Below the pieces are notes generated by a model that was not told the origin of the DNA, searched no databases, and worked only from the letters and a program-made list of their open reading frames with translations. Shown here in pieces: positions 38,095 to 53,876 of a stretch of DNA of 54,630 bases. Position numbers and translations under genes: made by a program. Positions within the stretch are counted from its first letter, which is position 1. Each line of letters begins with the position of its first letter. Source of the stretch: a virus (Duplodnaviria; Caudoviricetes); the IMG/VR virus record IMGVR_UViG_3300028293_000001, positions 1-54,630 of that record; one strand, 5' to 3'.

Positions 38095-38095
38095 G

Positions 38096-39121: not shown

Positions 39122-39177
39122 TTTCAACCTCTCTTTCTCATCTTGCGCGGTCGTCGCGCGGGTTGGGTGGCTCGGCG

Positions 39178-39660
39178 CTAGAACGTCGAGGTGAAGAAGT
39201 AGGCGCTCGAGCCGCCGCCGTTGCTCGAGGTGGGCCAGCCGGCGGTGAGCCAGTAGAGCACGCTCGTCAGCGCTGTCAGGCGCACGCTCGCACCCTGGGC
39301 CTGCAGGGTGATCTGGTTCGCCGAGCTGCCGGTAGTGGTGCCGATGTTCACGCCGGCGCCGCACTGGATCTGGTGGCCCAAGGTCGACGTGTTGGTCTGG
39401 GTGATCACCTTGTCGGTGCCCGGGACCGGGGCCTGGATCGTGTTGATGGCCGAGCTGGCGGTCGTGGTGGAAAGCTGCGAGTAGCCATGGCTCGCGAGCG
39501 AGCTGCCGCCGGTCGTGGTGATGAGCTCGACCAGCTTGCGGATGTCGGCGGCCCCGACGATGTACTCCTCGCCCACGGGACGGTAGTTGTCCAGGCCGAG
39601 GCGGCGGCCGTAGATGCCGGTCTTGATCTGGCTGCGGAGTTGCTCGAGTGACTGTGCCAC
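39178..39660 (-). CDS. Ser/Thr-rich putative virion protein (160 aa)
   Basis: AGGAGA RBS before GTG 39660; runs such as TTTGGSS, STTTASS, TTTGSS. Confidence 0.7.
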   Translation of the reverse strand: MAQSLEQLRSQIKTGIYGRRLGLDNYRPVGEEYIVGAADIRKLVELITTTGGSSLASHGYSQLSTTTASSAINTIQAPVPGTDKVITQTNTSTLGHQIQCGAGVNIGTTTGSSANQITLQAQGASVRLTALTSVLYWLTAGWPTSSNGGGSSAYFFTSTF

Positions 39661-39800
39661 GGTGGTTCTCCTGGTTCGGTTCTGCATCGCCCCTTTTCGG
39701 CCGCGGGGCGCGGCGGAGACACCCTCGCGGGTGCCCTGCTCTTACCTCCGACGTCGGCCGTTGCCGCGCATCGGGTTGCGATCTCGTTGTCGGTCGTGCC

Positions 39801-40139
39801 TCACTTGCCCCAGAAGCTGACGGTGACAAAGCCGCTCGTGGGGAAGGCGACCGAGTAGCCTGTGCTGTCGCCGGTGATTTGCCTCGTCACCGCGGTCGGA
39901 ACGAACTCGTTCCAGCCGCTCGAGAGCGTGGTGCCGCTCGAGTTGGTGGTGGGCACCTGCGCTCCGGTGCTCCTCCCGTTCAGGACGAAGGGGACATTGC
40001 CCGCCCAGGTCGCGATCTCCGCGCCTGCGGGGTAATCGAAGGCCACGATCGCGCCGGCGGTGGTGCCGATGATGGTGCCGATGGTGTCGGGGTTGACCGG
40101 GACCTGGTCGGTGGGATGCAGGGTGCCGTCGATTTTCAC
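39801..40139 (-). CDS. Ser/Thr-rich putative virion protein (112 aa)
   Basis: GAGG RBS; PTTNSSGTTLSSG. Confidence 0.7.
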   Translation of the reverse strand: MKIDGTLHPTDQVPVNPDTIGTIIGTTAGAIVAFDYPAGAEIATWAGNVPFVLNGRSTGAQVPTTNSSGTTLSSGWNEFVPTAVTRQITGDSTGYSVAFPTSGFVTVSFWGK

Positions 40140-40146
40140 GTTGGCC

Positions 40147-40329
40147 TCAGTAGTGCATCGCGGTGCGTTTCGGGGAGGTGCGCTTCGCGCGCCGCAGGCC
40201 CTTGGCGGTAGGCTTGTTGCCGCGCATCAAGCCGATCTTGTTCAGGGTGCCGTAGACCGCGCGGTTGTTCGAGCCGTATTCGGCCTTCAGCTTGCTCTCG
40301 ACCTTCGCAACTGCCGTTCCTGCTGGCAT
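40147..40329 (-). CDS. Small basic protein (60 aa)
   Basis: GGAGGGG RBS; first gene after a predicted promoter. Confidence 0.65.
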   Translation of the reverse strand: MPAGTAVAKVESKLKAEYGSNNRAVYGTLNKIGLMRGNKPTAKGLRRAKRTSPKRTAMHY

Positions 40330-40417
40330 GTCCCCTCCGATGTCGTCCCCGGGGCACTATCTGGCGAATGCCGCCCCGGGGGTTCTCTGGCGTCAGGCTG
40401 GTCGCAAGAATGGCCGC

Positions 40418-40451
40418 AGTGTAGGCGCTTCCGTGGCGCTGCACAAGAGCC
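40418..40451 (-). promoter_or_regulatory. Putative late promoter
   Basis: GGCTC-TTGTGC-17-TACACT; shares its extended -35 with 33139-33172. Confidence 0.65.
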
Positions 40452-41011
40452 TACTTCGCGGCCTTGACCTTCATGCGGCCGGCGAGCTCGAGCGTGAAGG
40501 CGATGCGGCGCGCCGAGCTCACCAGATCCTCCTCGTCCTCTTCGATCTCCGAGGGCGGCGGCGGGATCTCGGCCTCCGGCCTGAAGAGGCCTTTGTGCTT
40601 GAACAGGCGCTCGAGGCTCGCGTTCTTGTCGAGCACCTTGTAGCGGTAGGTCACGATCGTCTTCTTGCCGCGCTTCTCGACCACCCGCTCGATCCCGCCC
40701 ACAGCGGCGGCGGTGTCGTCATCCAGCTCCTGGGGCTTCTTCATCCGCCCATCGGCGTGGAACAGGCGCCGGGGGTCGAGAAAGGCAAGGCGGGTGGTTT
40801 CGCGCAGGATCCGCTGTACGTCGATCCGAGCGGCTCGCGCGGCCTCTGCCTCAAGTTCGTCGACTAGCTGGCGGACCTTAGCATTCGTGAGCAACCTGGA
40901 CCCGTTGACCGCTGCTGCCTGGTCGGTGTTGCAGTTCGGGTAGACAGCCTTGTAGGCGCGAGTCGCGTTGTGGTCCTTGGCGTACTCGCGAGCAAAGGCC
41001 CTGTACCGCAA
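40451..41011 (-). CDS. terS: Terminase small subunit
   Basis: FAREYAKDHNATRAY...AAVNGSRLL.NAKV, AFLDPRRLF, DK..SLERLFKH.GLF; exact start uncertain. Confidence 0.88.
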   Translation of the reverse strand: MRYRAFAREYAKDHNATRAYKAVYPNCNTDQAAAVNGSRLLTNAKVRQLVDELEAEAARAARIDVQRILRETTRLAFLDPRRLFHADGRMKKPQELDDDTAAAVGGIERVVEKRGKKTIVTYRYKVLDKNASLERLFKHKGLFRPEAEIPPPPSEIEEDEEDLVSSARRIAFTLELAGRMKVKAAK

Positions 41012-41043
41012 CAGGGCCTTGCTGATCGAGAGGCCGCGGCGCT

Positions 41044-42798
41044 TCAGAAAGCGCCCAGCCCTTGAGCCGGGCTGCCTGGCTGCAGGTGGAAGTCACCGCC
41101 GGCGCGGTTGACGAAGAGCGGGTCGATCGAGATCCCGGTGGGGTCGACCGAGGGCTTCGCAGCTCCGAACCAGTCGTTGCCAGCCGCGGTGAAGCCCACC
41201 GGAAAGCCGGTCGTCGAAAACTTCACGTCGGCGATGATGTTCTTCGTGAAGCTGACCGTCCCGATGATGTCCGGCTTGATCGAGCCTGAGTCCGGGATGC
41301 CGTCCAGGCCGCAGTCGGCGAACGTGTTGTTCGTGACCACCGCCTGGACCTTGCTCGAGGCGAAGCGCAGACAGCTGCCCGACTGGCCGGCATCGGTGCT
41401 CGGGCCCTGCAGCGCAGGGTTGCCCGTGCGCGAGACCACGTTCCGCTCCACGCGCGCGCCCGGGCCTGAGTTGCTCGACAGGATGATGCCGTCCAGGTGC
41501 ACGTTCCTGATCACGTTGTCGTGGATCCAGATGTTGGTCATCGAGCGCGTATCGGTGTCGCAGTAGAACTGGACCCCACGGCCGCCCGTCTGGTTGTTGA
41601 TCGTGTTCCAGCCGACCTCGTTGTCGTTCACCGTGGCCGCGCGGCAGTCCCCGTAGATCGCGTGGTAGAGCTTCGAGCCGCCGTTGTCGTGCAGGTTGTT
41701 GCCGAAGATGCGGATCCGCGTGCCGCTGAACTCGACCGCGGCTGCGCCGCCTGAGTCCTCGAAGTAGTTCTTGACCTCGTTCGCCACCACGCGCACATCG
41801 TCGTTGCCTTGCTCGGGCGCGATCGACAGGCCGTGCCCCTTGGCGTCGATGCTGAAGCCCGCGATGACAACGTGGCCGGTCGTCGAGAACATGTGGATGC
41901 CGCGGGACTGCGACGTGTACACGAAATTGCACGCCTCCCCCGGGTAGCACAGGAACGCCATGGGAGCGGCTGCGGTGCCGCTCTTGTGGTGGATCGAGAA
42001 GAACGAGCCGTATTGCGCATAGACGTCGCTCCAGGTCCCACCGCGAACGACCAGATGGTCGCCTGGTGTAAAGTCCGAGCGCTCGAAGGTCTGGGTGATG
42101 AGGCGGCAGGGCTTGGTGATGTCGTTCGGCGCGCAGGTCGCGTCGTTGCCGCCGAGGGCGACAAACCAGACCTTGCCCGGAACCACCGTGAAGGTCGCAT
42201 TGCTCGCCGTGCCAGCGACTGCGATCGTGCCGCTCGATACCCCTGGGCCTGGCTGAACGGTGATCCTGGTGTCCGACCATTGCTTGTAGGCGGCCACCGG
42301 CGAGCCGCCGATCGTAACGACCGAGGCACCCTGGGTGGCACCGAATCCCGCGCCGTAGAGCGTGATGTAGGCCCCGTTGTTGCCCTCGCCACCATTGTTC
42401 GGCCCGGTCACGACGTCGGTGTAGGAGATCGAGCCCCTCACTGCCGGCACAGGGCTGGGTGTCGGGTCTGGCGTCGGGGTTGGGACTGGATCCGGTGTCG
42501 GCGTTGGAGTGGGGGTCGGCACCGGGACCGGATCCGGGACGGTGACTGCCACGCATGGGGCCAAGCGCAGGGAGGGCGGCGCACTTCCCTTCAAGGCGTG
42601 CCACTCGGCCTTGCCTACGACCGACTGGGTGAGGGCTTCGCACGGATCGCCCACGTTCGCCCGGCCGCCATCGGGCTGGGTGGTGCGCTGCGTGGCGGCC
42701 TTGTTGCTCGGGTTGGGCGCGACCTGCCAGACGGTAGCGCCGTGGGCTGCAGCGGCTAGGAAGAGCGCAAGCGCGGCGGAGAGGCGGAGGGATTTCAT
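41044..42798 (-). CDS. Secreted protein: signal peptide, Pro/Thr linker, IPT/TIG-like domain, right-handed beta-helix
   Basis: AAGGAGA RBS; MKSLRLSAALALFLAAAAHG; (PT)n linker; ITLYG.GFG...WSDT.I; repeated I..N.I..N strands; DPLFVN...DFHLQ.GSP. Confidence 0.78.
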   Translation of the reverse strand: MKSLRLSAALALFLAAAAHGATVWQVAPNPSNKAATQRTTQPDGGRANVGDPCEALTQSVVGKAEWHALKGSAPPSLRLAPCVAVTVPDPVPVPTPTPTPTPDPVPTPTPDPTPSPVPAVRGSISYTDVVTGPNNGGEGNNGAYITLYGAGFGATQGASVVTIGGSPVAAYKQWSDTRITVQPGPGVSSGTIAVAGTASNATFTVVPGKVWFVALGGNDATCAPNDITKPCRLITQTFERSDFTPGDHLVVRGGTWSDVYAQYGSFFSIHHKSGTAAAPMAFLCYPGEACNFVYTSQSRGIHMFSTTGHVVIAGFSIDAKGHGLSIAPEQGNDDVRVVANEVKNYFEDSGGAAAVEFSGTRIRIFGNNLHDNGGSKLYHAIYGDCRAATVNDNEVGWNTINNQTGGRGVQFYCDTDTRSMTNIWIHDNVIRNVHLDGIILSSNSGPGARVERNVVSRTGNPALQGPSTDAGQSGSCLRFASSKVQAVVTNNTFADCGLDGIPDSGSIKPDIIGTVSFTKNIIADVKFSTTGFPVGFTAAGNDWFGAAKPSVDPTGISIDPLFVNRAGGDFHLQPGSPAQGLGAF

Positions 42799-43847
42799 GT
42801 TTCTCCTTTTCGTGGAATGGGCCCGCGCACCAATTCCCAGGTGAGCGGCTCGCCGGCGATAACGTCGCGGCACACCTTCATGCCGAGCAGTTGCTGCCGG
42901 TACTTCGGCGCCAGGCCATCTCCAGGTCGTAGCGCGCGCACATTATGCGCCGTGAGCTCGTCGCCCGCCTTCATGTCGTAGGCCACGTGCAGCGTACGGC
43001 GCAATTCGAGCATCGGCCGCTCGTCTTTCGTCGGCCCGAATGACTCGTTCCCGACCGCGTCGATCGCGTCCTTGATGGAGGAGATCATCGCGGCCATGAA
43101 TTGCGGGTTCAAAGAGAAGCCAACGTCGGGCGAGGCGAATTGTCCGTTGTCGCCTAGGCCGAGGTGCTTCTCGATCATGTCGGCGCCGAGGAGCGCCGCG
43201 GCGATCGCGGCTGCCGCGCCCTGGGTGTGATCGGATAGGCCCACCCGGCAGTGGAAGTGCTCGCGCAGGTTGTGCATGGTGATGAGGTTCGCCTCGCGCG
43301 GATCGGCTGGGTAAGCGCTCGTGCACCGCAGCAAGGTCAGCTTTCGTCCCGAGCACCCTCCGAGAGCGGCGGCTTCGACAGCGTCGGTGATCTCCTCGAG
43401 CGTGGCCATCCCGGTCGAGATCACCAACTCTTTGCCGGTCTCGGCAGCGTAGCGGATCAGGTCGAGATCGAGGATCTCGAAGGAGGCGATCTTGTACATC
43501 CGGCAGCCCAGGCGCTCGAGGAAGTCGACGGCCTCGCGGTCGTAGGGCGTGCTGAACGGCAGGATGCGCAGTTCGTGGGCGAGAGCGAAGATCGACGCGG
43601 TCCAGCTCCACGGCATCTCGGCGCGCTTGTAGAGGTCGAGCAGGCGCTCCTCTCCCCAGGGACCTCCGGCCGTGCGCGTGCAGTTGCGGTGCACCATGGT
43701 GTCGGCCTGGTAGGTCTGCAACTTGATGGCCTGGCAGCCGGAGGCGGCGGCAGCGCGCACGATCGCCAGCGCCCGGTCAGGGTCCTGGAGGTGGTTCGCG
43801 CCCATCTCTGCCACGATGAGCGGGTAGCTTTCGTAGACGAATTTCAT
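42795..43847 (-). CDS. pseI: Pseudaminic acid synthase (NeuB family with SAF domain)
   Basis: IVAEMGANH, AIKLQTY..DT, FSTPYD, YKIASFE, ISTGMA, CTSAYP, GLSDHT, IEKH, RRTL...RPGDG. Confidence 0.88.
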   Translation of the reverse strand: MKFVYESYPLIVAEMGANHLQDPDRALAIVRAAAASGCQAIKLQTYQADTMVHRNCTRTAGGPWGEERLLDLYKRAEMPWSWTASIFALAHELRILPFSTPYDREAVDFLERLGCRMYKIASFEILDLDLIRYAAETGKELVISTGMATLEEITDAVEAAALGGCSGRKLTLLRCTSAYPADPREANLITMHNLREHFHCRVGLSDHTQGAAAAIAAALLGADMIEKHLGLGDNGQFASPDVGFSLNPQFMAAMISSIKDAIDAVGNESFGPTKDERPMLELRRTLHVAYDMKAGDELTAHNVRALRPGDGLAPKYRQQLLGMKVCRDVIAGEPLTWELVRGPIPRKGET

Positions 43848-44362
43848 GTGCGCCCCCAGAGTTCGAGCGCCTGGGCGATCGACTCCATCGTGCCAGCCGA
43901 GAAGTCCCCGGTCGCGCCGGCGCGCCGCAGCGCGGCGATGTAGTCGGGGATGTTGCGCTTTTGCACCTGGACCTGCCGGTTGAGCTCGCCCTTCTTGAAC
44001 TCGCCCTCGTCGCTCTCGATCGGTTTGATGGCGTTCCGCGTGCCCTTCTCCACCACGCTCACGATCACGAAGGGCCGCGGCGGCTCGGCTGGCCTGGCGG
44101 GTACGGCGCGGCGGTTTCCCTGGGCGGGGATGGCCTCGGTTGCAGGGCGCCCTTGCGGCCGGTCGACCAGGATCTGCGGGGTCACCTTCAGGTAATCCAG
44201 GCAGGCGTCGTAGGCCAGGATGTCTTCCTCGCGCACCAGCAGCGTCATCTCCTCCTTCTCGTGGCGGATCTTCCATAGCGCGAGCTGCAGGACCCGGTCG
44301 CGGTCGCCCTTGGCGAACGTGTCCAGGGCATCAAGCGGTGGGGGGTTCTTCGATTTGGCCAT
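43844..44362 (-). CDS. Hypothetical protein (172 aa)
   Basis: GAGGAG RBS; lies within the sugar cluster. Confidence 0.7.
   Translation of the reverse strand: MAKSKNPPPLDALDTFAKGDRDRVLQLALWKIRHEKEEMTLLVREEDILAYDACLDYLKVTPQILVDRPQGRPATEAIPAQGNRRAVPARPAEPPRPFVIVSVVEKGTRNAIKPIESDEGEFKKGELNRQVQVQKRNIPDYIAALRRAGATGDFSAGTMESIAQALELWGRT
44080..44135. repeat. 56-bp exact direct repeat, copy 1
   Basis: Identical to 48874-48929 on a base-by-base comparison. Confidence 0.95.
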
Positions 44363-44819
44363 TGGCTGCTCCTCTTTCTGGCAGTTGGTAGGTGTGTTGG
44401 ATGAGCTCCGCCCCAAGGCGCTTGAATAGCGCGATCGAGGCCACGTTCTCCGGGTTGATGTTGGCGACGAACCTGTTGGGCACGATACCGGCCTTGCCCG
44501 GGAGCGGGTCGTGGCAGGAGATCAGCCAGCGCAGGGCTTCCAGGCCCCAGCCCTCGCCGCGGTGCGCCCTGCAGATCTGGATCCCGACCTCGTTCCTGAC
44601 GGTCAGGTACATCACCCCGATCCACTTCGTCCCGAGCGCGAGCACATAGCGGACCCGGTAGGGGTTGTCCTCGTCGATGTACCGGATATGCTCCACCATC
44701 GTCGGCATGCGCTCGTGGCTGATGTTGACGTAGTCCTCGCGCTCCTCGAGCAGCTTCCAGAGGAACTCGTGGCGGCCGTCCAGGTTCCGGGTGATCGGGA
44801 TGAAGCGTAGCGGATCCAT
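44331..44819 (-). CDS. GNAT N-acetyltransferase (PseH-like)
   Basis: EVGIQI...HRGEGWG..AL, ANINPENVASIALF.RLG; context in the pse cluster. Confidence 0.8.
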   Translation of the reverse strand: MDPLRFIPITRNLDGRHEFLWKLLEEREDYVNISHERMPTMVEHIRYIDEDNPYRVRYVLALGTKWIGVMYLTVRNEVGIQICRAHRGEGWGLEALRWLISCHDPLPGKAGIVPNRFVANINPENVASIALFKRLGAELIQHTYQLPERGAANGQIEEPPTA

Positions 44820-45568
44820 CAGTGCACCACCCTCGTTTCGATGCCGTGCTCCTTCAGGTAGAGCGCGGCGCCCGCCGGGGTCTGATCGGTGAACTGGAAC
44901 ATGGCGCCCGCGGCGACCGCGTCGGCCCCCGCCTGGAGGGCCTCGAGCATGTGCTGGTAGGTGCCGGCCCCGCCATGGGCGATGACCGGCACGCCAATCC
45001 GCGGCGCCACCAGGCTGATGAGCTGCAGGTCGTAGCCTTTCATGGTGCCCTCGCGCTCGACCGCGGTGAGCAGGATCTCCCCCGCCCCCAACATCGAGTA
45101 CATGTCGGCCACCTCGACCGCGCTCAAGCCGATCGCCATCTCGTTGCAGAACCCTCGGGCCCGGCCATCGACGTCCACATCCAGCGCAGCGACAATCGCC
45201 TGGCGCCCGAACTGGTCCGCGCAGCGTTTGAGCAGGACGGGGTTCCGGTAGGCCTCGGCCCCGATCACGACCTTGTCGGCGCCGGCGCGCAGCAGGTCCT
45301 TCACGTCCTGGGTGGTGCTTACGCCCCCTCCGACCGCAAGCGGCACGTGGGTATCGCCCGCGAGTTCGCTCACCAGTTCGAGGTCCGGGCTTCGGCCCTC
45401 CGGGGTCGCGCCGATATCGAGGAGGCAGATCTCGTCGACCCCGCGCATGGCGTGGATCTTGACGGCCTGCGCAGCGTTACCGACCACCCGCCAGGCGTCG
45501 AAGCGTTCACCTTTCACGAGCTGGCGCCCGCGGCACAGGATCGTGGGGATGATGCGCTTGCTGAGCAC
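44819..45568 (-). CDS. HisF-like cyclase-fold partner of the sugar amidotransferase (WbuZ/HisF2-type)
   Basis: KRIIP, LVKG..F, GVDEI.LLDI, PLAVGGG, GAGEILLT.V.REGT..GYD. Confidence 0.88.
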   Translation of the reverse strand: MLSKRIIPTILCRGRQLVKGERFDAWRVVGNAAQAVKIHAMRGVDEICLLDIGATPEGRSPDLELVSELAGDTHVPLAVGGGVSTTQDVKDLLRAGADKVVIGAEAYRNPVLLKRCADQFGRQAIVAALDVDVDGRARGFCNEMAIGLSAVEVADMYSMLGAGEILLTAVEREGTMKGYDLQLISLVAPRIGVPVIAHGGAGTYQHMLEALQAGADAVAAGAMFQFTDQTPAGAALYLKEHGIETRVVH

Positions 45569-45571
45569 GAT

Positions 45572-46657
45572 CTAAGCTAGTTCCTTAAGCGTGGGGGTGC
45601 GCTCGCGATTGGCGAACAACTCCCAGTTGGTGAAGCGATCGAGCACCGCGAACAGTTGATGCTCGCTCATGCCGATCCGCTCGAGCACCTCCCGGAGGCT
45701 GATCCCGCCGTAGAGGTACGGCACCCAGCCGTCGTAGGTGTGCACGAAGTCGAGCGCTTCGCTGCGGCTCACCTTGCCGCGGCGGATGTCGACTGAGAGC
45801 TGGGCGGCGGCACGGCCGTATCCGTATTTCCGATACATCGCGTGGTCGTGCAGTCCGGTCATCGCGTTGTCGAGGTTCTCGTGCTCCCACCAGTTGGCCT
45901 GGCAGGGCTTGTCCTGCAGCATGCCGTTGTCCCTCGCGACCTTGGCATTGCGCTCGGAGTCCCATTCGAAGAAGCTGCCGAGGAAGATCGCGCGCACGTG
46001 CCCGTAGTCCCCGGGTGCGTAGGGCTCCATATCCTGTTCCGTGAGCCCCTCGGTCCCCACCAGGTCGGCCGCCCGCAGCCCGAGAAAGCCGCCGAACTCG
46101 GTCACCCAGCGCCTAGTCATCTCCTGGGCCTCGTCGCTCCCCTCCGGGCCGCCGTAGGCCTCCTGCGGGTTCTCGCCGTAGATCACGATCGGGATCCCCA
46201 TCGCCTGGGCGATCCGCCAGGGAGTGTTGAAGATCGTGGCGTGCTCGGGCCAGCTGATGTCGCCCACGAGTTGCAGCCCGAGCCGGTTCAGCTTCGCGCG
46301 CACGGTCTTGTTCGGGGTGTACTCGAGGGTGGGGGCGAAGCGCGCGAGGTTGTCGATGTTCGCCCGCCCGATCGGGGTGAGCATGCAGGTGGTCGCGGTC
46401 ACGATGAGCGGCCGGTAGCCGAGCTCGATCACCTTGAGCACCTGCCAGTGGCTGTCCTTGCCACCGGAACTCGCCACGACGCAGTCGAAGGGCGACTCGT
46501 TCGCGTAATCGGCCATGAGTTCGTGGAAGTCCATCTCCTTGCGAGGCCAGTCGATCTTCGGGCGCTTGGCGAAGGACCTGCAGGCCGCGCACACTCCATC
46601 CCGGAACGGGGTATCCGGGCGGGTATCGGGGATGACGCACAGACGACAGCGCTTCAC
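45572..46657 (-). CDS. N-acetyl sugar amidotransferase (PseA/WbuX family)
   Basis: CRLC..PDTRP...GVC.AC, DCVVASSGGKDS (PP-loop), YGEN..E.YGG, NLDN...HD...YRKYGYGRA. Confidence 0.9.
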   Translation of the reverse strand: MKRCRLCVIPDTRPDTPFRDGVCAACRSFAKRPKIDWPRKEMDFHELMADYANESPFDCVVASSGGKDSHWQVLKVIELGYRPLIVTATTCMLTPIGRANIDNLARFAPTLEYTPNKTVRAKLNRLGLQLVGDISWPEHATIFNTPWRIAQAMGIPIVIYGENPQEAYGGPEGSDEAQEMTRRWVTEFGGFLGLRAADLVGTEGLTEQDMEPYAPGDYGHVRAIFLGSFFEWDSERNAKVARDNGMLQDKPCQANWWEHENLDNAMTGLHDHAMYRKYGYGRAAAQLSVDIRRGKVSRSEALDFVHTYDGWVPYLYGGISLREVLERIGMSEHQLFAVLDRFTNWELFANRERTPTLKELA

Positions 46658-46821
46658 GTGTTGCTCCTCGGGGGCACGAATGGGTTGGGCTTCAGTTCCG
46701 GGTAGGCCGCCTCGAGCTCCCGCAGATCGGCCGCAGCGTCCATCACGCCGTGCCAGTCGCCCTCGTCGATCTTCATCTCCAGGTAACTCAGGTAGCGCTT
46801 CCAGCGCTCCTCGGGGCTCAC
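46654..46821 (-). CDS. Hypothetical protein (55 aa)
   Basis: GTGA overlaps at both ends; YL.MKI...DWHGV.DAA.DLRE. Confidence 0.6.
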   Translation of the reverse strand: MSPEERWKRYLSYLEMKIDEGDWHGVMDAAADLRELEAAYPELKPNPFVPPRSNT

Positions 46822-47411
46822 GCGCGCCGCCCGAGCCAGTAGGTGCAGCGATCGAAGCCTGGGCACTCGTCCCCGTAATCCACGATCTTCACCTGGTGCG
46901 CCTCGAGCACGGCCCCGTAGTTGCGCCGCCACAGGAGATCCTTTTCGCCGCGGTACTCGATCGGCTCGTCCGCGCCCGATTCGCTCACGTACTCCACGGC
47001 GAGCACCCAGTCGACGCTCATCTCCACCAGGTGGCTGACAGTGGCGTGCAGGTTCTCGGGCGCCACGTGGATCAGCACGCCGGCGGTGAAGGCGAGTTCG
47101 CAGGGGAGGATGGCCGGGGTCTTTCCCTGGGGTTCGCGCAGGAGCACTGCGCGCAGGCCGGCCGCCCTCGCCTGCAGCACCGCGCGCTCGTTCACGTCCA
47201 CGCCGATGCACTCGATGTGGCGCTGCGCTGCGGCTTGGATGGCTGACAGATTCCAGCCGGCGTTGCACCCGAGTTCGTAGGCCGAGCGCACGCCGGTCTG
47301 CGAGAGGATCCGCTTCCAGAAGGGGATGCGGTCCCACCAGGTGACCCGGTTGCGCGCGGTGTAGGCGTCCCCGAACTCACCCGCCCAGGCTTCCTCTTGG
47401 CGGGTCATCAT
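46818..47411 (-). CDS. Pseudaminic acid biosynthesis-associated SAM methyltransferase
   Basis: QE..WAGEFGD.Y..RN, ELGCNAGWNL, GVDVN, FT.GVLIHV.P, EY...YRG....LW.RNYG. Confidence 0.88.
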   Translation of the reverse strand: MMTRQEEAWAGEFGDAYTARNRVTWWDRIPFWKRILSQTGVRSAYELGCNAGWNLSAIQAAAQRHIECIGVDVNERAVLQARAAGLRAVLLREPQGKTPAILPCELAFTAGVLIHVAPENLHATVSHLVEMSVDWVLAVEYVSESGADEPIEYRGEKDLLWRRNYGAVLEAHQVKIVDYGDECPGFDRCTYWLGRRA

Positions 47412-48121
47412 GTGAGCCTCTTTCCGCCCTCGACCAGCGCCGCGTACATCAACTCGGCGCGGATCCAGTCCTCCTCGGTGTCGATATCCTGGACCCGCCA
47501 GCGCGGGATCGGCACGCCGATCGAGGCAGGCGCGTAGATCTGCTCCTCGCGCAGGAAAGCCGAGGCCCTTCCCCAGTACCACTGGCCGGCGTCGTGCCAA
47601 TGCTCCTCGAGGTCCTGGGAGCGGGTATCGGCGTGTTCGGACCAGACCGGCCAGATCGCGCCATCGGACCTGCGGCTAAGAGCGCGCTGGACCGGGAAGG
47701 GGAAGGTGGTGACCGCGAAGGCGTAGGTCGGATTCCACTCGGTCTTCGTGAGGCATGTGTGGCCCAGGCGTATGTCCTGCGGGGTCACCATCGGTGCGGT
47801 CGCGTAGAGGCAACAGACCTCGTCGCCCCATCCAGCCTCGAGCTTCGTCAGGGCGTGGCGCATCACGGCCTGGGTTCCGGTTTTGTCGTCGGCCAGTTCG
47901 TCAGGGCGAAGGACCACGAGCGCCACGTCCTCCCAGTATTTGTTGACGATGGCGGCGATCTCGCGGTCCTCGGTGCTCACCCAGATGCCGTCGAAGAGCT
48001 GGCTGTCCCTGGCCGCGGCGATCGAGTAGTTGATGATCGGGATCCCGTGGAAGGGCTTGATGTTCTTGCGCGGGATCCGCTTGCTCCCGCCGCGGGCCGG
48101 GATGATGCAGAAGCGGCTCAC
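47408..48121 (-). CDS. pseF: CMP-nonulosonate synthetase (pseudaminic acid cytidylyltransferase)
   Basis: IIPARGGSKRIPRKNIK, VSTED, RP.ELADD, CLYATAP, RSQDLE...HDAGQ.YWG, VQDIDT.EDW. Confidence 0.9.
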   Translation of the reverse strand: MSRFCIIPARGGSKRIPRKNIKPFHGIPIINYSIAAARDSQLFDGIWVSTEDREIAAIVNKYWEDVALVVLRPDELADDKTGTQAVMRHALTKLEAGWGDEVCCLYATAPMVTPQDIRLGHTCLTKTEWNPTYAFAVTTFPFPVQRALSRRSDGAIWPVWSEHADTRSQDLEEHWHDAGQWYWGRASAFLREEQIYAPASIGVPIPRWRVQDIDTEEDWIRAELMYAALVEGGKRLT

Positions 48122-48996
48122 TTGGCCTCCGGCGGCTTGAAGTCGAGCGGCTCGACCACGAGCTTGCCATCCTGCCAGCGGTGGTTCCTGAACTGCATGC
48201 CGTCGTCGCGCGGCAGCGGGCCGTAGGTCGCCGCGTCCTTGTTCAGGTCGCGCGCCTCGACCACCAGCTTCACGTCGTCGTAGCCGTAGGTGGTGTCGCT
48301 CACCACTAGGTGGTACTGCCGGAGGATGTCGCAGTCGGGCATGGCCTTGACCTTCACCCCGCGGCCCTCGGCGAACCCGCACCAATACTCGAGACAGGCC
48401 CTCGCGCTGATCGGCTCGCCGCGCGGGGTATCGAGGGCAAGGCCCACACCGTGGAGCCCGATCTCGACCGCGCCGAGCGCGATCGCGTAGGCGACCATCA
48501 TGTCGATGCTGCCGGCGTGGTAGATGCCGCCGCGGGGCCCGAGCACCGTGTGCAATTGATGCCGCGGGAAGAGGTGCTCATTCGCCAGCAGGCCGTTCCA
48601 GGTATCGATCACGTAGAAGGGGACGGTCGGGTTGTTCTTCGACCAGTCGGCGTCCCAGATGATGTACTCGTAGCAGTCGCGGTTCAGGTGTGCGAAGCGG
48701 TGCAGGTTGAACATGCGCGCCCAGCGCACCGGTGCCCAGCGGTTCTGGGGCCTGTTGTCCGGTCTGATCGCGTTGAGGCCCCAGATCTCCCAGCTGTAGT
48801 CGTAGTGCGCGTGCAGGAAGTACTTCTCCTTGGCGCCGCCGGCGATGATGGCGACTCGGAGCGGGGGCTTCTCGCGGCTCGGCTGGCCTGGCGGGTACGG
48901 CGCGGCGGTTTCCCTGGGCGGGGATGGCCGGTCCTGGGCGGCGGCGAAGGCCTGCTTCTCTATGGCGCGGTCGTTCTTGGATCTCCTGCCGAACAT
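48118..48996 (-). CDS. Sialyltransferase/Maf-fold protein, candidate transferase 3
   Basis: RVAIIAGG, WEIWGLN, FNLH, SIDMMVAYAIALGAVEIGLHGV, RACLEYWCGFAEGRG; coupled to pseF. Confidence 0.6.
   Translation of the reverse strand: MFGRRSKNDRAIEKQAFAAAQDRPSPPRETAAPYPPGQPSREKPPLRVAIIAGGAKEKYFLHAHYDYSWEIWGLNAIRPDNRPQNRWAPVRWARMFNLHRFAHLNRDCYEYIIWDADWSKNNPTVPFYVIDTWNGLLANEHLFPRHQLHTVLGPRGGIYHAGSIDMMVAYAIALGAVEIGLHGVGLALDTPRGEPISARACLEYWCGFAEGRGVKVKAMPDCDILRQYHLVVSDTTYGYDDVKLVVEARDLNKDAATYGPLPRDDGMQFRNHRWQDGKLVVEPLDFKPPEAK
48874..48929. repeat. 56-bp exact direct repeat, copy 2
   Basis: Identical to 44080-44135. Confidence 0.95.
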
Positions 48997-49009
48997 CGCG
49001 TTCTCCTCT

Positions 49010-49405
49010 CTATCGGGCGTTGGGATCCATCGCGGCCAGGTCGGAGATTGCTTGAAGCACCTGGTCTACGACGTGGGCGGCCATGTACACGGGCTTGCGG
49101 CCGTCCTTGTCCATGCTCACGAGCATGATCGTCACGCGGGTGATGAGCCCCTCGCGCAGCCTGCCGGCAGCATACTGCATTCGCTGCTCCTTCGTCACGG
49201 CGCGCTGGATGTAGTCGGCCTCGGCGCTCATCGCGTCGGCCACGTTCCTCGCGCCGTTGGGGTCGAAGGCGACCCACAGCTTGGGCTCTGGGAAGCGCAG
49301 CACCACCTTGTCGGCGTCGTGCGCCACTATCACCGAGCTGGCGCCCGGGGCCCCCAGGCTCTTGAACTCGGGCGGCTCGTGTTCCTGGCCGTTATTCCCG
49401 CTCAC
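49010..49405 (-). CDS. Hypothetical protein (131 aa)
   Basis: Packed ORF in the sugar cluster. Confidence 0.65.
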   Translation of the reverse strand: MSGNNGQEHEPPEFKSLGAPGASSVIVAHDADKVVLRFPEPKLWVAFDPNGARNVADAMSAEADYIQRAVTKEQRMQYAAGRLREGLITRVTIMLVSMDKDGRKPVYMAAHVVDQVLQAISDLAAMDPNAR

Positions 49406-49706
49406 GGGCCTTGGCCTCGTCCGCGTCCAGAATCTTGCCGATCTCGACGATCTTCTTCGCCAAGGTGTAGGGATCGTGCTTTGCCCCGCAGGCGACTGCC
49501 GAGGCCATCACGGTCAGCCCGTGGTTGTAGGCCTGCTCGGCCGTGAGCGTCAGGAACTGGCCCCTGAAGGCCGGGCGGAAGATGAAGGCGATGCCGGTCT
49601 TGCGCGAGCCGACGATGTCGATGTCCTGCTTCTCGGTCTTCACGGCCTCGGCCGCCCGCGCCTCCGAGCTCTGCTTCTTGCGCCGCAGGATTTCGTTGAT
49701 TCTCAT
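49392..49706 (-). CDS. Hypothetical protein (104 aa)
   Basis: ATGA-coupled to the aminotransferase. Confidence 0.65.
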   Translation of the reverse strand: MRINEILRRKKQSSEARAAEAVKTEKQDIDIVGSRKTGIAFIFRPAFRGQFLTLTAEQAYNHGLTVMASAVACGAKHDPYTLAKKIVEIGKILDADEAKARERE

Positions 49707-50341
49707 TTGAAGATCTCCATCTGGGAAAGGTCGGGGTAGTCGTCGTTCGGCAAGTCGCCGCCGGCGCCGATGATCGGAAGGCGCACGAGGCCAGCGGCGG
49801 CGATCTCCGGGCTCATGTAGGCGTGCCAGCCTGCGAAGGTGAACACGTCGTCCTTCGGGGCCACGCCTTCGGCGCGGCCGTCAAAGCGCGCCCGGCGCAG
49901 CCAGGCATCGGCCTTGGCGTCGTCGTGCAGAATGGCGCCGCCCTGCTGGATCCCGAGGATCTTCGACCAGTGGAAACTTGTGCACAGCATGACCGACCGG
50001 TGGTCGACAGCTTCGACGGCCATCGTGTACATGTGGCGCGCGAAGCGCCTTGCGCAATCCCAGACCGGCAGGGGCTCTAGCCGGTAGGCTCCATGCCAGT
50101 CGTCGTCGCGGAATACCGGCCGCCCTCCAGCGTGGATGATGCTCATGGGCACGCTAACGTAGGTGCGCTTGGGGATTTCGATCGAATGCCTACCGGGATA
50201 TGTGCCCATGCCACGCAGATGCCACGCCACCGCGAGCAGCAGCGCCATCGTGCAGCTCGAGGTGGTCACAGCGTAGGGTGCGCCGGTGTAGTCGCACAGA
50301 GCGGCCTCGAAGTCCTTGACCACCTGGAAAGGGTTCTTCAT
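49703..50341 (-). CDS. Short DegT/DnrJ/EryC1/StrS PLP aminotransferase (PseC-like)
   Basis: FE.ALCDYTGAPYAV..SSCTMAL, TYVSVPMSI, DCA, SFHWSK (PLP lysine), GGAIL; only 212 aa. Confidence 0.8.
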   Translation of the reverse strand: MKNPFQVVKDFEAALCDYTGAPYAVTTSSCTMALLLAVAWHLRGMGTYPGRHSIEIPKRTYVSVPMSIIHAGGRPVFRDDDWHGAYRLEPLPVWDCARRFARHMYTMAVEAVDHRSVMLCTSFHWSKILGIQQGGAILHDDAKADAWLRRARFDGRAEGVAPKDDVFTFAGWHAYMSPEIAAAGLVRLPIIGAGGDLPNDDYPDLSQMEIFK

Positions 50342-51243
50342 ACCTTGGTGAGCTCCGTTCGAAGTTCCTCGATCGTCATCCTGGGGGCGTCGCAGGAGCG
50401 CCGAGGTCCCTCCGGCTCCCCCGCGGCGAGCATGGTCTCGTGTAGCTTCTCGTCAGGGCCGAGGACCTGGTCGACCCAGAGCCCGACCGGGCTCGGCTCG
50501 CCCTCTGGCAGCATAGCGGCGAGCAGGTCGCCAAGCCTGTAGGCTGGCAACTCCGGGACGATCAGGGTGCCAGACAGGGCGCGGGAGGCCTTGATCACGA
50601 GCTCGACCGCCTGGTCGGCGCGGATCCAGAATCGGGTCACATCCGGCGTGCGGATCGTGATATCGCGCTTGGCCGCGATCGCCGCGCGCCAGGTCGGGAT
50701 GACCGAGCCCGTGCTGCCGGCCACGTTCCCGTAGCGCACCGCGGTGAAGTTCGGACCGTGGGGTGCCATGGCCACCGCGCCCAGCATCAGCTTCTCGGCG
50801 ACGAGTTTGGTCGCCCCGTAGCAGTTGAGCGGCTCGGCCGCTTTGTCGCTCGACACGAACACGACCCGGTCGACCCCCGCGTCGATCGCCGCGTCGATCA
50901 CGTTCTGAGTCCCGAGGATGTTGGTCTTCACCATCTCGGTGGGGTTGTAGATCCCGACCTCGACGCGCTTCAAGGCCGCGGCATGGATCACCGTATCGAC
51001 CGATTCCATGGCTCGGGTGAGGCGCTCGCGATCGCGCACGTCCCCGATGAACCAGCGTAGCCGCGGGTCGTCGCCGAACTCCGCACGCATCGCTGCCTGG
51101 GCGGCCTCACCGCGCGAGTAGATGCACACCCGCTCGGTGTGCTGGTCGGCCTTCAGTTCGGTGAGGATGTGCCGCACGAGCGCCCGGCCGAGGAAGCCTG
51201 TGCCGCCGGTGATCAGCCAGCCGAGGCCCGGGGATTTCAGCAT
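50338..51243 (-). CDS. pseB: UDP-GlcNAc 4,6-dehydratase (PseB/FlaA1 family)
   Basis: ITGGTGFLG, YSR.E, FIGDVRD, HAAALK.V...YNP.E.VKTN, SSDKA..P.N.YGATK, RYGNV.GSTGSVIP, TRFWI. Confidence 0.9.
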   Translation of the reverse strand: MLKSPGLGWLITGGTGFLGRALVRHILTELKADQHTERVCIYSRGEAAQAAMRAEFGDDPRLRWFIGDVRDRERLTRAMESVDTVIHAAALKRVEVGIYNPTEMVKTNILGTQNVIDAAIDAGVDRVVFVSSDKAAEPLNCYGATKLVAEKLMLGAVAMAPHGPNFTAVRYGNVAGSTGSVIPTWRAAIAAKRDITIRTPDVTRFWIRADQAVELVIKASRALSGTLIVPELPAYRLGDLLAAMLPEGEPSPVGLWVDQVLGPDEKLHETMLAAGEPEGPRRSCDAPRMTIEELRTELTKV

Positions 51244-51247
51244 GTGG

Positions 51248-51296
51248 AAAAAAGTGGGCCCGGAGCGCTCGAGTGTCGAACGCTGGATCCAGGCCC
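51248..51296 (-). terminator. Terminator/attenuator-like hairpin in the late leader
   Basis: GGGCCTGG...AGCGTTCGA-CAC-TCGAGCGCT-CCGGGCCC followed by ACTTTTTT, 4 nt before the pseB ATG. Confidence 0.55.
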
Positions 51297-51339
51297 GGAG
51301 GTCCGGCTTGGGGCCGGAAGGGAGAAGAGAAGCGCGGAA

Positions 51340-51368
51340 ATTGTAGCGCCGGTCATGTTGCGTTGCAA
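51340..51368 (-). promoter_or_regulatory. Sigma70-type promoter heading the sugar/late region
   Basis: TTGCAA-17-TACAAT on the minus strand. Confidence 0.75.
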
Positions 51369-51373
51369 TGACA

Positions 51374-51883
51374 TCAGGCGTGCTCCTCGTAGCCCCATCG
51401 GGCTATCAGGATGGCCTCGGCGCGGTTGTGGTCCTTCTTCCGAGCCAGGTCGGCCTCGGGGTAGAAGCGCTGGGCGAGTTCGCGCGCCTTGCCCTTATTC
51501 TCCTTGCCGCCGGGGATGCTGAATGCCTTCTTCCAGCTGCCCGGGGTGACCTCGCAGTTCGGAAAGCGGCACGCCACAACGACGCCCTCAATGATCCCAG
51601 TGGTATGCCCCAGGCTAAAAACACTCGAGGTCCCCTGCGGCTTCGTGCCCGGAGCTCGGAAAGGGGCCTGGCGCTCGAGCACCACAAGAATGGCTTCGCG
51701 GTCGTAGTCACGTGTCCACTCCCTCAATAGCTGGGCGAGCGCGGCGGCGTTCACCTGGTTTTTCACCTTGGCCTCGCCGTTGCCGCGCGTCATGGTCGGC
51801 ATGTCGGCCACGGCCTCGAGGCCGCGCGGGCCCACCATGGCAAGCGCTCCCGACAGGCCCGGATCGACGCCGATGATCTGCAT
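51374..51883 (-). CDS. RuvC-like Holliday junction resolvase
   Basis: IIGVDPGLSGA, VVLE, F.LG...G, TP..WKK, DHNRAEA.LIA. Confidence 0.85.
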   Translation of the reverse strand: MQIIGVDPGLSGALAMVGPRGLEAVADMPTMTRGNGEAKVKNQVNAAALAQLLREWTRDYDREAILVVLERQAPFRAPGTKPQGTSSVFSLGHTTGIIEGVVVACRFPNCEVTPGSWKKAFSIPGGKENKGKARELAQRFYPEADLARKKDHNRAEAILIARWGYEEHA

Positions 51884-52278
51884 CAGAAGTTCACCCCGAC
51901 GTGCACGGTGCTGTTGTGGTTGATCACCGCGACCTCGATCCCGATCGTCACGTACTGCCAGGCCTCGCGCCAGCCACGCGGGAGCGCGTAGGCTATGCCG
52001 GCGTGCACCGCCGACCCGATGAGCGTGGCAACTGCCAGCTTCGTGCCGCTCGGGTTGCGACCCAGGAGCGGGTTGCTCTCGTGCATCTGGTGGCACACCG
52101 GGCCCCGCTGCTCCGAGCATGGCACGTTGCTATGCAGCAGAGCGTTGGTCTGGTAGGCATCGTAGGCGAACAGGCTCACGTTGATCGCCTCGCGCACCGT
52201 GTCGGCGTCGGTCCACTCGTCGTGGGCCGCAGCCGGCATGGCCATGGCGAGCAGGAGCCAGGCGCCGGAGATCCTCAT
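51883..52278 (-). CDS. Exported/membrane hypothetical protein
   Basis: Signal peptide MRISGAWLLLAMAMPAAA; D...T...E.NPLLG..P motif. Confidence 0.7.
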   Translation of the reverse strand: MRISGAWLLLAMAMPAAAHDEWTDADTVREAINVSLFAYDAYQTNALLHSNVPCSEQRGPVCHQMHESNPLLGRNPSGTKLAVATLIGSAVHAGIAYALPRGWREAWQYVTIGIEVAVINHNSTVHVGVNF

Positions 52279-52499
52279 CCCTCCCCCTGCTTCAGCTTGG
52301 CGACGCATTCGCCGTGGATCAGTCCTTGCGTATAGGCATCAAAGGCCAGACGCTCCATTTGCTCTCGGACGCTCTGAAATACATTGAACGATGCCTCATG
52401 GAATCGCACAATCGGGCTTACTTGTTCCCGAGCGACAGCGGCAATTTCCGCCGGAATCTTGACCGTCATCAACCCCAATCGTTCGGCGCGGCTTCTCAC
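52275..52499 (-). CDS. Hypothetical protein (74 aa)
   Basis: GTGA and ATGA coupling to its neighbours. Confidence 0.55.
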   Translation of the reverse strand: MRSRAERLGLMTVKIPAEIAAVAREQVSPIVRFHEASFNVFQSVREQMERLAFDAYTQGLIHGECVAKLKQGEG

Positions 52500-52678
52500 T
52501 TTCTCTCCTGCTGAGACATGGCGGCGTCGGCGAGCGCCTCGATCGCGCGCACGCCATCGCACTGGGCGGCGTGGGGCATGCCTTCGACCCGCCCGCAGAA
52601 GCGGCACACGTAGGCCGGGTCCTTCCAGTGGTGCCGGTAGGCGTAGAGGATGGTGCGCCGCGCCTGCTCGTTATCCAT
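52496..52678 (-). CDS. Small Cys/His protein (60 aa)
   Basis: GGAGG RBS; CRFC...H...C. Confidence 0.55.
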   Translation of the reverse strand: MDNEQARRTILYAYRHHWKDPAYVCRFCGRVEGMPHAAQCDGVRAIEALADAAMSQQERK

Positions 52679-53408
52679 GGACGGCCTCCCGCTCTGCCTG
52701 GATCCGGTGGGCATGGCTCGGGACGAAGGTCCCGGCCTCCAACTGCCGTGTCAGCCCTGCAAACATCGCCATGGGGTCGCGCACCGACTTCTCGCGCAGG
52801 ATCCCCTCGAGCTCATCCAGCAGGTTCTGGGCCTCTCTCGGGCTGATCGCCTCGAGGTAAGGTCGCATCGCCTCCTGCTGAGCGCTTGAGAGCCTTTGGG
52901 GGTAGAGCAGTTTCCTACCAGCCGCCGCCGCAGCCTTGGAGTTATCCACAGGCTTTGCCGGTGGCGCTTGCTTTGCTGCTGCGGCTTTGTAGTTGGTTCC
53001 TGACGGTTCGGCGGACATAGCTATGTCACCCCTTTGGGACCTGGGTGTCCGCCCCTGAGGGACCTGGGTGTCACCCCTTGAAGGGGGGGGAGACAACTTG
53101 TCCTCCCCCCCTGTGGATAAGTTTTCCTGGTTGAAGAGGGGCAGCGTTTCGATCATGTGGACCTGGTAGAGGTGGCAGCCGTTCGGCCCCTTGTTGCGTA
53201 GCGTTTTGAGCTCCCCAGCCGCCTCGAGGTGCCGCAGGGCGCGGCGCGTGTTGCGCTCGCTCATCCTGATCATGCGACCGAGGGTGGCGACCGAAGGCCA
53301 TGCCATGCCCTCGCGGTTCGCGATATCAGCGATCGCGAGGAGCAGCAGGAGCTCGGTGCCGCTGTGCTTCGAGTTCTCCCAGACGTAGGCGCTGACGTAG
53401 ACGCTCAC
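52671..53408 (-). CDS. Replication initiator (N-terminal winged HTH, lambda O-like position)
   Basis: LLLLAIAD.AN..G.AWPSVATL......SER..RRAL..LE..G; contains internal iterons. Confidence 0.82.
   Translation of the reverse strand: MSVYVSAYVWENSKHSGTELLLLLAIADIANREGMAWPSVATLGRMIRMSERNTRRALRHLEAAGELKTLRNKGPNGCHLYQVHMIETLPLFNQENLSTGGEDKLSPPPSRGDTQVPQGRTPRSQRGDIAMSAEPSGTNYKAAAAKQAPPAKPVDNSKAAAAAGRKLLYPQRLSSAQQEAMRPYLEAISPREAQNLLDELEGILREKSVRDPMAMFAGLTRQLEAGTFVPSHAHRIQAEREAVHG
52942..53120. other. Putative replication origin: iterons flanked by two DnaA boxes
   Basis: TTATCCACA at 52942-52950 and TGTGGATAA at 53112-53120; TGTC(A/CG)CCCCT-type repeats at 53024, 53046, 53069 and (degenerate) 53099; GGGACCTGGG at 53036 and 53059. 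Confidence 0.75.
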
Positions 53409-53602
53409 GGCAGGCTCGCGAAGCTGTAGCGCCTCGGCCGGCGCAGACCACGCACCCGCGGGTTGGTGCGCAGGCGCTCGCGCGCGGCGGCGGCGCGTAG
53501 GTCAGGCGGCCAGGGGCACTTCCCGTCCCACAACTCGATCGAATCGCTCGTGAGCCAGCGTCTGCTGGCGCTCGGTTCGGCCACCTGCTTCTCCTCTTTC
53601 AT
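53405..53602 (-). CDS. Hypothetical protein (65 aa)
   Basis: Fills the gap between cro and the initiator; GTGA overlap. Confidence 0.45.
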   Translation of the reverse strand: MKEEKQVAEPSASRRWLTSDSIELWDGKCPWPPDLRAAAARERLRTNPRVRGLRRPRRYSFASLP

Positions 53603-53618
53603 GGGCCGGTCACGCCTG

Positions 53619-53825: not shown

Positions 53826-53831
53826 GGTTGG

Positions 53832-53876
53832 GTGAACTTTACTTGACCGGCTCGGTGGAAGTCAAGCCGCCTTTAC
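53832..53876 (-). promoter_or_regulatory. cro promoter with operator-like boxes
   Basis: Minus strand TTGACT-18-TAAAGT; GTCAAG-CCGC-CTTTAC (53861-53876) and degenerate GTGAAC-TTTA-CTTGAC (53832-53847). Confidence 0.72.

Follow-up and report, generated by a model that had tools for sequence, protein, structure and literature searches.

A podovirus-type phage genome found in soil metagenomes appears to encode most of a CMP-pseudaminic acid pathway, with candidate transferases beside its structural genes

Bacteria have counterparts of sialic acid, the nonulosonic acids, which occur on flagella, pili, capsules and lipopolysaccharide and are used there as phage receptors. Why, then, should a phage carry genes for making such a sugar itself? 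The question is raised by a minus-strand operon (42795-51243, PseB through PseI) in the IMG/VR record IMGVR_UViG_3300028293_000001, a circular assembly of 54,630 bp with a 127-bp exact terminal repeat and a completeness rating of 100%, which was analyzed over its full length and is here called the window. Judging from its genes, the phage seems to encode most of the pathway leading to cytidine monophosphate (CMP)-activated pseudaminic acid (Pse) together with enzymes that tailor the sugar. The most likely use of this sugar, to which we give about an even chance, is the O-glycosylation of the phage's own structural proteins, the predicted acceptor, in the cytoplasm before assembly.

The preliminary description of this locus took the cluster to be phage-borne, and checks of coverage and of related contigs bear this out, since depth is even, the borders are bridged and gene order is shared. 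Logan contigs from two soil-metagenome runs of two studies (X1 and X2, one of which may be the source sample of the window) cover all 30 bins of positions 38000-54000, and in X1 the depth over this interval is 18.3-21.2, with no sequence differences listed. The contigs bridge both the RuvC/PseB border and the PseI/beta-helix/terS border. In X1 a 49.7-kb contig starts at 48900, crosses the ends of the record and stops at 44109, the interval 44106-48903 being covered by a separate 4.8-kb contig, and in X2 a 3.2-kb contig spans 48900-52097. In both runs a 56-bp exact repeat is the only place where contigs are interrupted, which is expected for a short-word graph. The composition of the cluster is likewise that of its surroundings: GC content is 0.62-0.70 throughout the window (66% for the whole DNA) and 0.66-0.67 across the cluster, and GC at third codon positions (GC3) is 0.84-0.93 in the cluster genes, matching the virion genes.

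The order PseB, short PseC, ORF131, ORF292, PseF, methylase, WbuX, WbuZ, GNAT, ORF172 and PseI is found again in eight or more further viral contigs. It is full in G002 (a complete genome), G003, L044, L005 and L050, partial in L049, L004 and G001 (also complete), and looser in G004, G005 and L053. The virion proteins of G001-G003, whose whole records were compared, are 44-90% identical to those of the window, and the tailoring genes (WbuX, WbuZ and the methylase) are the most constantly conserved part of the cluster. Among the sequenced phages in GenBank nothing close to the pathway was found, in line with the preliminary description, which knew of no characterised phage carrying it whole: a PseI homologue was found in three of 50,697 GenBank phage records, one of them a Moritella record and all below 30% identity. 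In the literature outside subscription journals and supplementary files, no account of a phage with such a pathway was found.

Profile searches within the operon recovered each of the eight enzyme families that the preliminary description had assigned to this coupled minus-strand cluster (Table 1). PseI, PseF and WbuX/PseA score above curated equivalog or subfamily cut-offs, and PseI falls below the cut-off of the NeuB model (261.3 against 399.65 bits). The remaining enzymes are placed less tightly. PseB has TIGR03589 as its best family (280.5 bits against a cut-off of 407.75, profile positions 8-264 of 324) and FlaA1/PseB (2gn4, E 5.9e-63) as its best PDB match; the methylase lies just under the TIGR03587 cut-off (110.9 against 112.05 bits); and WbuZ has TIGR03572 as its best family (223.4 bits, cut-off 299.7). 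The GNAT protein occupies the position of the PseH step and lies outside the PseH family, matching no NCBIfam family at E <= 0.01. The DegT-like protein covers only positions 26-94 of the 360 in PF01041 and is a relative at the level of the DegT superfamily only, scoring 33.2 bits against a cut-off of 423.5 for the PseC family TIGR03588. It aligns to residues 40-109 and 182-246 of perosamine synthetase, keeps the pyridoxal phosphate (PLP) lysine motif SFHxxK, and is conserved at 57-67% identity in eight contigs (G002-G005, L044, L005, L049 and L050). On these scores the cluster enzymes appear to be members or near-members of known bacterial families.

Compared with the bacterial CMP-Pse pathway (PseB-C-H-G-I-F plus PseA, known from Campylobacter and Helicobacter flagellin), the window shares PseI, PseF and WbuX/PseA above cut-offs and a methylase at its cut-off; its PseB-like protein has PseB as best family, below the cut-off, and FlaA1 as best structure. 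It differs in that the cluster is phage-borne and has neither PseG nor the glutaminase, that the PseC-like protein has 212 aa against about 380 in the bacterial pathway, that the GNAT protein is not a PseH member, and that three conserved proteins of unassigned function (ORF131, ORF172 and ORF292) are interleaved with the enzymes. What is new is the phage carrier, the reduced pathway, the interleaved virus-specific proteins and the transferase candidates tied to virion modules.

Several details of the earlier gene map had to be revised. Genes were called by GC3, since spurious long open reading frames (ORFs) are common at 66% GC. By this measure the 493-aa ORF first taken as PseI (42795-44276) is in part a frame artefact: PseI starts near 43847, and its supposed N-terminal extension is overlain by ORF172. 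Similarly, a 227-aa ORF at 46654-47337 is in part an artefact of high-GC DNA, the methylase occupying another frame. With the GC3-based calls, neighbors from PseB to a gene for a 584-aa protein overlap by 1-32 bases or sit 3-13 bases apart. This last gene separates PseI from terS, contrary to the direct passage into terS that had been described. The near-consensus promoter with which the operon was said to start lies in the 130-nt gap upstream of PseB and matches at only nine of 12 positions, which is chance level (two such sites in 14.6 kb against 1.2 +/- 0.9 expected). No terminator-like site was found on the minus strand between 54630 and 40000.

The preliminary description named no transferase. 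Three candidate TRANSFERASES are newly identified here, namely ORF292, ORF341 and a Maf-type protein. ORF292 lies within the operon; none of its 124 homologues carries a Pfam domain, its nearest Atlas clusters are 100% viral, and on present sequences the family looks virus-restricted. An AlphaFold 2 (AF2) model built from 43 sequences has a predicted local distance difference test (pLDDT) score of 82.3. When this model was compared with the PDB by Foldseek, the top six matches and eight of the ten best were sialyltransferases (overall E 1.4e-4 to 3e-3, probability 0.97-1.00), including ST8SiaIII and ST6GalNAc2 and led by CstII (2x63/1ro7; E 1.4e-4, probability 1.00, template modelling (TM) scores 0.39/0.43). 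The best PDB sequence-profile match is also a CMP-Neu5Ac (N-acetylneuraminic acid) lipooligosaccharide sialyltransferase, at a non-significant E of 1.1; the weak alignment falls on a segment that we take to belong to the nucleotide-sugar-binding core of glycosyltransferase family 42 (GT42). Sialyltransferases of GT42 and GT29 are the best structural matches of the predicted model, whereas ORF292 has no significant sequence similarity that would place it in these families, lacks a GPSL-type motif and seems confined to viruses. Relatives of ORF292 were located on 12 viral contigs, and in 11 of them (all but L051) the retrieved flank also contains at least one Pse-type gene. The second candidate, ORF341, is distantly paralogous to ORF292 (hhalign 97.6%, E 3.1e-12 over 182 columns; BLASTP E 4e-6), has no Pfam match of its own, and is present in four of five relatives searched.

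The third candidate is encoded in the tail-fibre module, where the surrounding genes include a Gp80-like fibre, a virion structural protein and a match to a tail-fibre phrog. It scores 50.3 bits against PF01973 (gathering threshold 34.6; 51.4 bits in a six-frame search) and carries the invariant GPSL, GG and FD..C..H motifs, so that family score and motifs are shared with the Maf transferases that attach nonulosonates to flagellin. Bacterial Maf proteins have large N- and C-terminal acceptor-binding parts; the window protein, by comparison, corresponds to the central domain only, sits in a tail-fibre module, and no flagellin is encoded. Its gene overlaps by four bases that of a 339-aa repeat protein (S+T 0.17, A+G 0.29), itself a candidate acceptor, in whose gene no DNA-level tandem repeats of note were seen. 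A 55.7-kb contig of GC 0.56 (L057) repeats the module as Gp80-like fibre, ORF105, ORF168, Maf-type protein, repeat protein and fibre, at 30-79% identity (65-79% for all except the repeat protein), with the Maf-type gene upstream of the repeat-protein homologue at a distance of 359 bases. No relative of the Maf-type protein was found in GenBank phages, nor in IMG/VR by pattern scan. Maf-type genes occur in other phage-size contigs, where 17 of 30 compared loci hold two or three tandem copies. For example, L068 has two in tandem after its major head protein (phrog_9953, E 6.1e-105) and before a tail protein, and L090 matches the same tail family after a single Maf-type gene.

Compared by ORF layout only, L062, L069 and L094 resemble L068. 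Tandem short MptE-like genes (about 260-300 aa) are seen in L062, L068, L070, L072, L073, L076, L080, L094, L104 and others, often spaced about 0.8-0.9 kb apart, at GC 0.34-0.62 and many on phage-size contigs, and some MptE-like homologues are fused to methyltransferase domains.

If the favored reading is correct, the first steps, from host UDP-N-acetylglucosamine (UDP-GlcNAc) to the diacetamido-altrose intermediate, would fall to PseB, the short PseC-like enzyme and the GNAT protein, and the PseG step, removal of UDP by hydrolysis, would be supplied by the host or by a substitute protein. PseI would then join the diacetamido sugar with phosphoenolpyruvate (PEP) to give the nine-carbon acid. 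The WbuX/PseA family makes acetamidino groups, according to its family description; here WbuX/PseA and the HisF-like WbuZ would turn an N-acetyl into an acetamidino group with ammonia from a host glutaminase or with free ammonia, the methylase may methylate the sugar, and PseF would use cytidine triphosphate (CTP) to form the CMP-sugar. The conserved pair ORF292 and ORF341, and the Maf-type protein as an accessory, are the candidates for transfer to serine and threonine residues of the virion. We infer this transfer because one candidate is encoded in the sugar operon, another beside the terminase and the third in the fibre module, and because bacterial Maf enzymes O-glycosylate flagellin serine and threonine with Pse, according to bioRxiv 10.1101/2023.12.03.569772. 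The gene identities, the ownership of the cluster by the phage, its conservation and the position of the candidates in structural modules are established by the analyses above. What the enzymes do, which sugar results, when it is made and, most of all, which protein accepts it are what we infer from them. In its most specific form, which we put forward only tentatively, ORF292 and ORF341 would be CstII-fold protein O-pseudaminyltransferases that coat the capsid and fibre of a soil podovirus with a self-made zwitterionic acetamidino (and possibly methylated) Pse, with the Maf-type protein as an accessory.

Several observations weigh against this reading. A six-frame search of the whole record gave no match at E <= 1 either for PseG (TIGR03590) or for a GATase/HisH glutaminase of the WbuY type (PF00117), and the DegT-like protein is heavily truncated, without some 35 central residues and the whole C-terminal domain. 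Of the whole pathway that the preliminary description spoke of, PseI and PseF are upheld, whereas PseG and a full-length PseC are missing, as is a glutaminase. One relative, G001, has lost PseB and the PseC-like gene except for the last residues; therefore the intermediates must come from its host, whose own surface probably carries Pse. ORF292 has no match in Pfam (E <= 0.1), NCBIfam or PHROG, and its link to sialyltransferases depends on one predicted model with modest TM-scores of 0.37-0.44. The only homologue of ORF341 and ORF292 in a cultured phage, in Microcystis phage Mvi-Yong1342-1 (L055 5902-6705, directly before terS), is annotated as a 'type 11 methyltransferase', which may be a misnomer. 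ORF292 was also considered as a profile relative of the Maf-type family and rejected (hhalign 2.5%). The Maf-type gene is absent from all five relatives searched and is therefore an accessory that arrived with the fibre module, not a conserved partner of the pathway. ORF168, which precedes it, was rejected as a conserved acceptor, because the proteins encoded at the corresponding position in L068 and L090 do not resemble it. Finally, a replication initiator and a resolvase precede the operon on the same strand, so that it could be transcribed with the middle genes instead of late. The suggestion that the phage coats its own virion consequently keeps its footing in phage ownership and in candidate transferases located in structural modules, and is weakened by an incomplete pathway and by one relative without PseB and PseC.

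Where might the sugar go otherwise? We consider it somewhat unlikely, though more plausible than the other alternatives, that the phage boosts the Pse pool of its host and re-tailors it with acetamidino and methyl groups, so that flagellin, pilin, capsule or O-antigen is altered and superinfection is blocked or progeny are kept from sticking to debris. A pathway that leans on host steps for PseG and the glutaminase, a relative whose lack of PseB and PseC implies Pse-making hosts, the constancy of the tailoring genes and the position of the operon after early-type genes are all consistent with such remodelling. There is also precedent in the Acinetobacter capsule, where, according to PMC12053666 and PMC6586298, Pse is altered by prophage-borne modifiers (epaA/epaB; O-acetyltransferases). 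These resemble the window in being phage genes that change Pse chemistry, but they comprise one or two tailoring genes carried by a prophage and directed at host capsule, as opposed to a near-complete pathway with no detectable integrase. Indeed, no tyrosine integrase was found in a six-frame search of the window, and non-exhaustive pattern scans for the portal and the ORF292 family in 185,579 species, one genome each, returned no prophage relatives, so that lysogenic conversion is unsupported. Remodelling of the host surface is further disfavored by the lack of a membrane glycan-assembly gene among the annotated genes, by the location of transferase candidates in the packaging and tail-fibre modules, and by the Maf-type genes that lie between head and tail genes in other phages.

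It is improbable that the cluster provides metabolic support alone, topping up CMP-Pse for a host process that the phage needs, with ORF292 and ORF341 not being glycosyltransferases. Such a role could draw on the missing family assignments of these two proteins, on the methyltransferase annotation of one of their homologues, and on pseI alone being listed as a viral auxiliary gene of ocean viromes in PMC6359870. Eleven coupled genes, tailoring enzymes included, would be a costly way to achieve this in a 54.6-kb genome, and the Pse-type genes beside ORF292 relatives in 11 of 12 contigs, the sialyltransferases among the best fold matches and the presence of a Pfam-level Maf-type gene all point away from it.

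Less probable still is DNA hypermodification, in which ORF341 would place the activated sugar or an intermediate on phage DNA before packaging. Its position two bases before terL, and that of the Microcystis phage homologue just before terS, are suggestive in this respect. The sialyltransferase and Maf folds, however, have to our knowledge only sugar or protein acceptors, and no thymidylate-synthase-like hydroxymethylase was found in the six-frame search. Phages do glycosylate their DNA with diverse glycans (bioRxiv 10.1101/2023.12.21.572611), but the words pseudaminic, nonulosonic, sialic and CMP do not occur in that paper. A chimera joining a host sugar island to a phage genome during assembly, which bacterial-type enzymes and a 56-bp exact repeat flanking 4.8 kb of the cluster might have suggested, is hardly credible and already contradicted, being rejected on composition, on gene coupling (neighbors overlap or nearly abut), on synteny, on Logan contigs that cross the two borders at even depth in both runs, each from a different study, and on a 127-bp terminal repeat longer than the 56-bp one; if this terminal repeat reflects the word size of the final assembly step, the shorter repeat should not have misled that step.

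Table 1. Positions of the features discussed, in coordinates of the window.
Feature	Coordinates	Strand	Remarks
O-like replication initiator	52671-53408	minus	upstream of cluster
RuvC-like resolvase	51374-51883	minus	upstream of cluster
Promoter-like site TTGCAA-17-TACAAT	51340-51368	minus	weak
PseB-like UDP-GlcNAc 4,6-dehydratase, 301 aa	50338-51243	minus	PF02719 E 1.9e-69
Shortened DegT/PseC-like aminotransferase, 212 aa	49703-50341	minus	PF01041 58.3 bits
ORF104, small protein, no family	49392-49706	minus	GC3 0.92
ORF131, conserved cluster protein, no family	49010-49405	minus	GC3 0.90
56-bp exact direct repeat, secondary copy	48874-48929		other frame, in N-terminal insertion of ORF292
ORF292, predicted sialyltransferase-fold protein, candidate nonulosonate transferase	48118-48996	minus	inside operon
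PseF CMP-pseudaminic acid synthetase, 237 aa	47408-48121	minus	TIGR03584 272.4 bits (cut-off 205.7)
Pse-biosynthesis-associated methylase, 197 aa	46818-47411	minus	TIGR03587 E 8.6e-32
ORF55, possible small gene	46654-46821	minus	GC3 0.91; 4-base overlaps at both ends
WbuX/PseA-family N-acetyl sugar amidotransferase, 361 aa	45572-46657	minus	TIGR03573 224.8 bits (cut-off 203.2)
WbuZ/HisF-like amidation subunit, 249 aa	44819-45568	minus	PF00977 E 1.8e-51
GNAT acetyltransferase, 162 aa	44331-44819	minus	PF13302 28.4 bits (cut-off 25.4)
ORF172, conserved phage protein, no known fold	43844-44362	minus	between GNAT and PseI
56-bp exact direct repeat, native copy	44080-44135		inside ORF172
PseI pseudaminic acid synthase, 350 aa	42795-43847	minus	TIGR03586 357.9 bits (cut-off 340.25)
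584-aa protein: signal peptide, Pro/Thr linker, TIG domain, beta-helix	41044-42798	minus	coupled to PseI
terS	40451-41011		phrog_51, E 7.1e-25
ORF341, distant ORF292 paralogue	38096-39121	minus	ends 2 bases before terL
terL	36496-38094
Portal	34496-36145		phrog_332, E 7e-52
Major head protein	31893-32960		phrog_3437, E 2e-43
Tail protein, 912 aa			phrog_376, E 1.1e-129
Head protein, 799 aa			lysozyme-like N-terminus
Gp80-type podophage fibre domain	19999-20451
Maf-type (Pfam MptE-like/DUF115) protein, 295 aa	17696-18583	minus	tail-fibre module
Repeat protein, 339 aa, Ser/Thr/Ala-rich, candidate acceptor	16680-17699	minus	4-base overlap with Maf-type gene

The virion module is of the podovirus type, with T7-like terminase, portal, major head and tail genes (phrog_51, phrog_2, phrog_332, phrog_3437 and phrog_376); it further includes a tail fibre, a virion structural protein of 862 aa and a fibre protein at 12654-13886, and no tail tube or tape measure was found among the annotated ORFs of the window. 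The nearest cultured phages are very distant, the portal being at most 28% identical to those of pelagiphages and other podoviruses, and no GenBank phage is a close relative of the window at the DNA level. The longest ORF of the major head protein has about 70 N-terminal residues, with a signal-peptide-like hydrophobic stretch, that are unmatched in relatives. Alignments to relatives begin between residues 31 and 68 and the PHROG match begins at residue 72, and to judge by these alignments the true start may be internal. A plus-strand early block encodes a DUF4942 DNA-methyltransferase-like protein (3691-4590), an SPFH/Band 7 protein (7181-8119) and a DnaJ-domain protein (8726-9325).

Other genes of the cluster differ in how widely they are shared. 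ORF131 has counterparts at 34-69% identity in G001-G003, L044, L005, L004, L049 and L050. ORF104 has no family and no tblastn match in relatives, and ORF55 has no counterpart in the relatives searched. ORF172 is represented by 84 clusters among 1.84 billion proteins, and its model (pLDDT 94.4) seems to consist of helices and a long beta arm and does not look like an enzyme. Its only significant BFVD match is an uncharacterized phage protein, a PDB profile search yields coiled-coil noise only, and the Atlas holds no usable match. Because it occupies the place expected of PseG, it was considered as a stand-in for that enzyme and rejected, the best PDB structure match having an E of 0.5 and no hydrolase-like fold being seen. 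The 584-aa beta-helix protein, whose signal peptide is of the Sec type, is a variable passenger gene that is not conserved in relatives; it has no relative among GenBank phages, a PDB search gives a low-complexity linker match only, and it may be a secreted protein that degrades or binds polysaccharide. In G001 the site of PseB and the PseC-like gene (L031 6100-8200, minus strand) holds an unrelated gene with a long Ala/Asp/Arg-rich repeat.

The two copies of the 56-bp repeat are 4,794 bp apart and flank the GNAT, WbuZ, WbuX, methylase and PseF genes. The copy in ORF172 is the native one, because the residues it encodes are conserved in eight relatives. The secondary copy falls within an insertion of ORF292 that is missing from most homologues, and it occurs in no related locus. 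As the copies flank the block from GNAT to PseF, recombination between them could delete it. The unitig of the repeat has a depth of 25.1 against about 18.4 for its flanks, and among the contigs of X2 there is one of low depth (2.3, where about 7 is usual) in which 43937 is linked to 48929 through 37 other letters. This contig may represent a variant without some 5 kb of the cluster, or DNA of another organism.

How would glycosylation of the virion by this phage relate to what is known? In mycobacteriophages, transferases encoded near the structural genes reportedly glycosylate capsid and tail proteins (Freeman et al. 2023), and are said to be ordinary glycosyltransferases that use host sugar nucleotides. 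The uncultured phage of the window would differ in also encoding the synthesis of an unusual nine-carbon donor. We know of no phage for which decoration of the virion with a phage-made nonulosonic acid has been shown. In the most specific form of the favored reading, no earlier phage particle would have borne a nonulosonic acid. A phage that makes such a sugar and probably attaches it would widen virion glycosylation, so far a matter of simple sugars taken from the host, to include a complex donor whose synthesis the phage itself encodes. Two unassigned phage families, ORF292/ORF341 and ORF172, would gain a function, and the compact enzymes, with a 212-aa DegT-like protein in a pathway that has no PseG, would offer a test of how far the Pse pathway can shrink. 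Such a particle would mimic a flagellar or capsular sugar of its host, and its adsorption, stability or recognition could change as a result.

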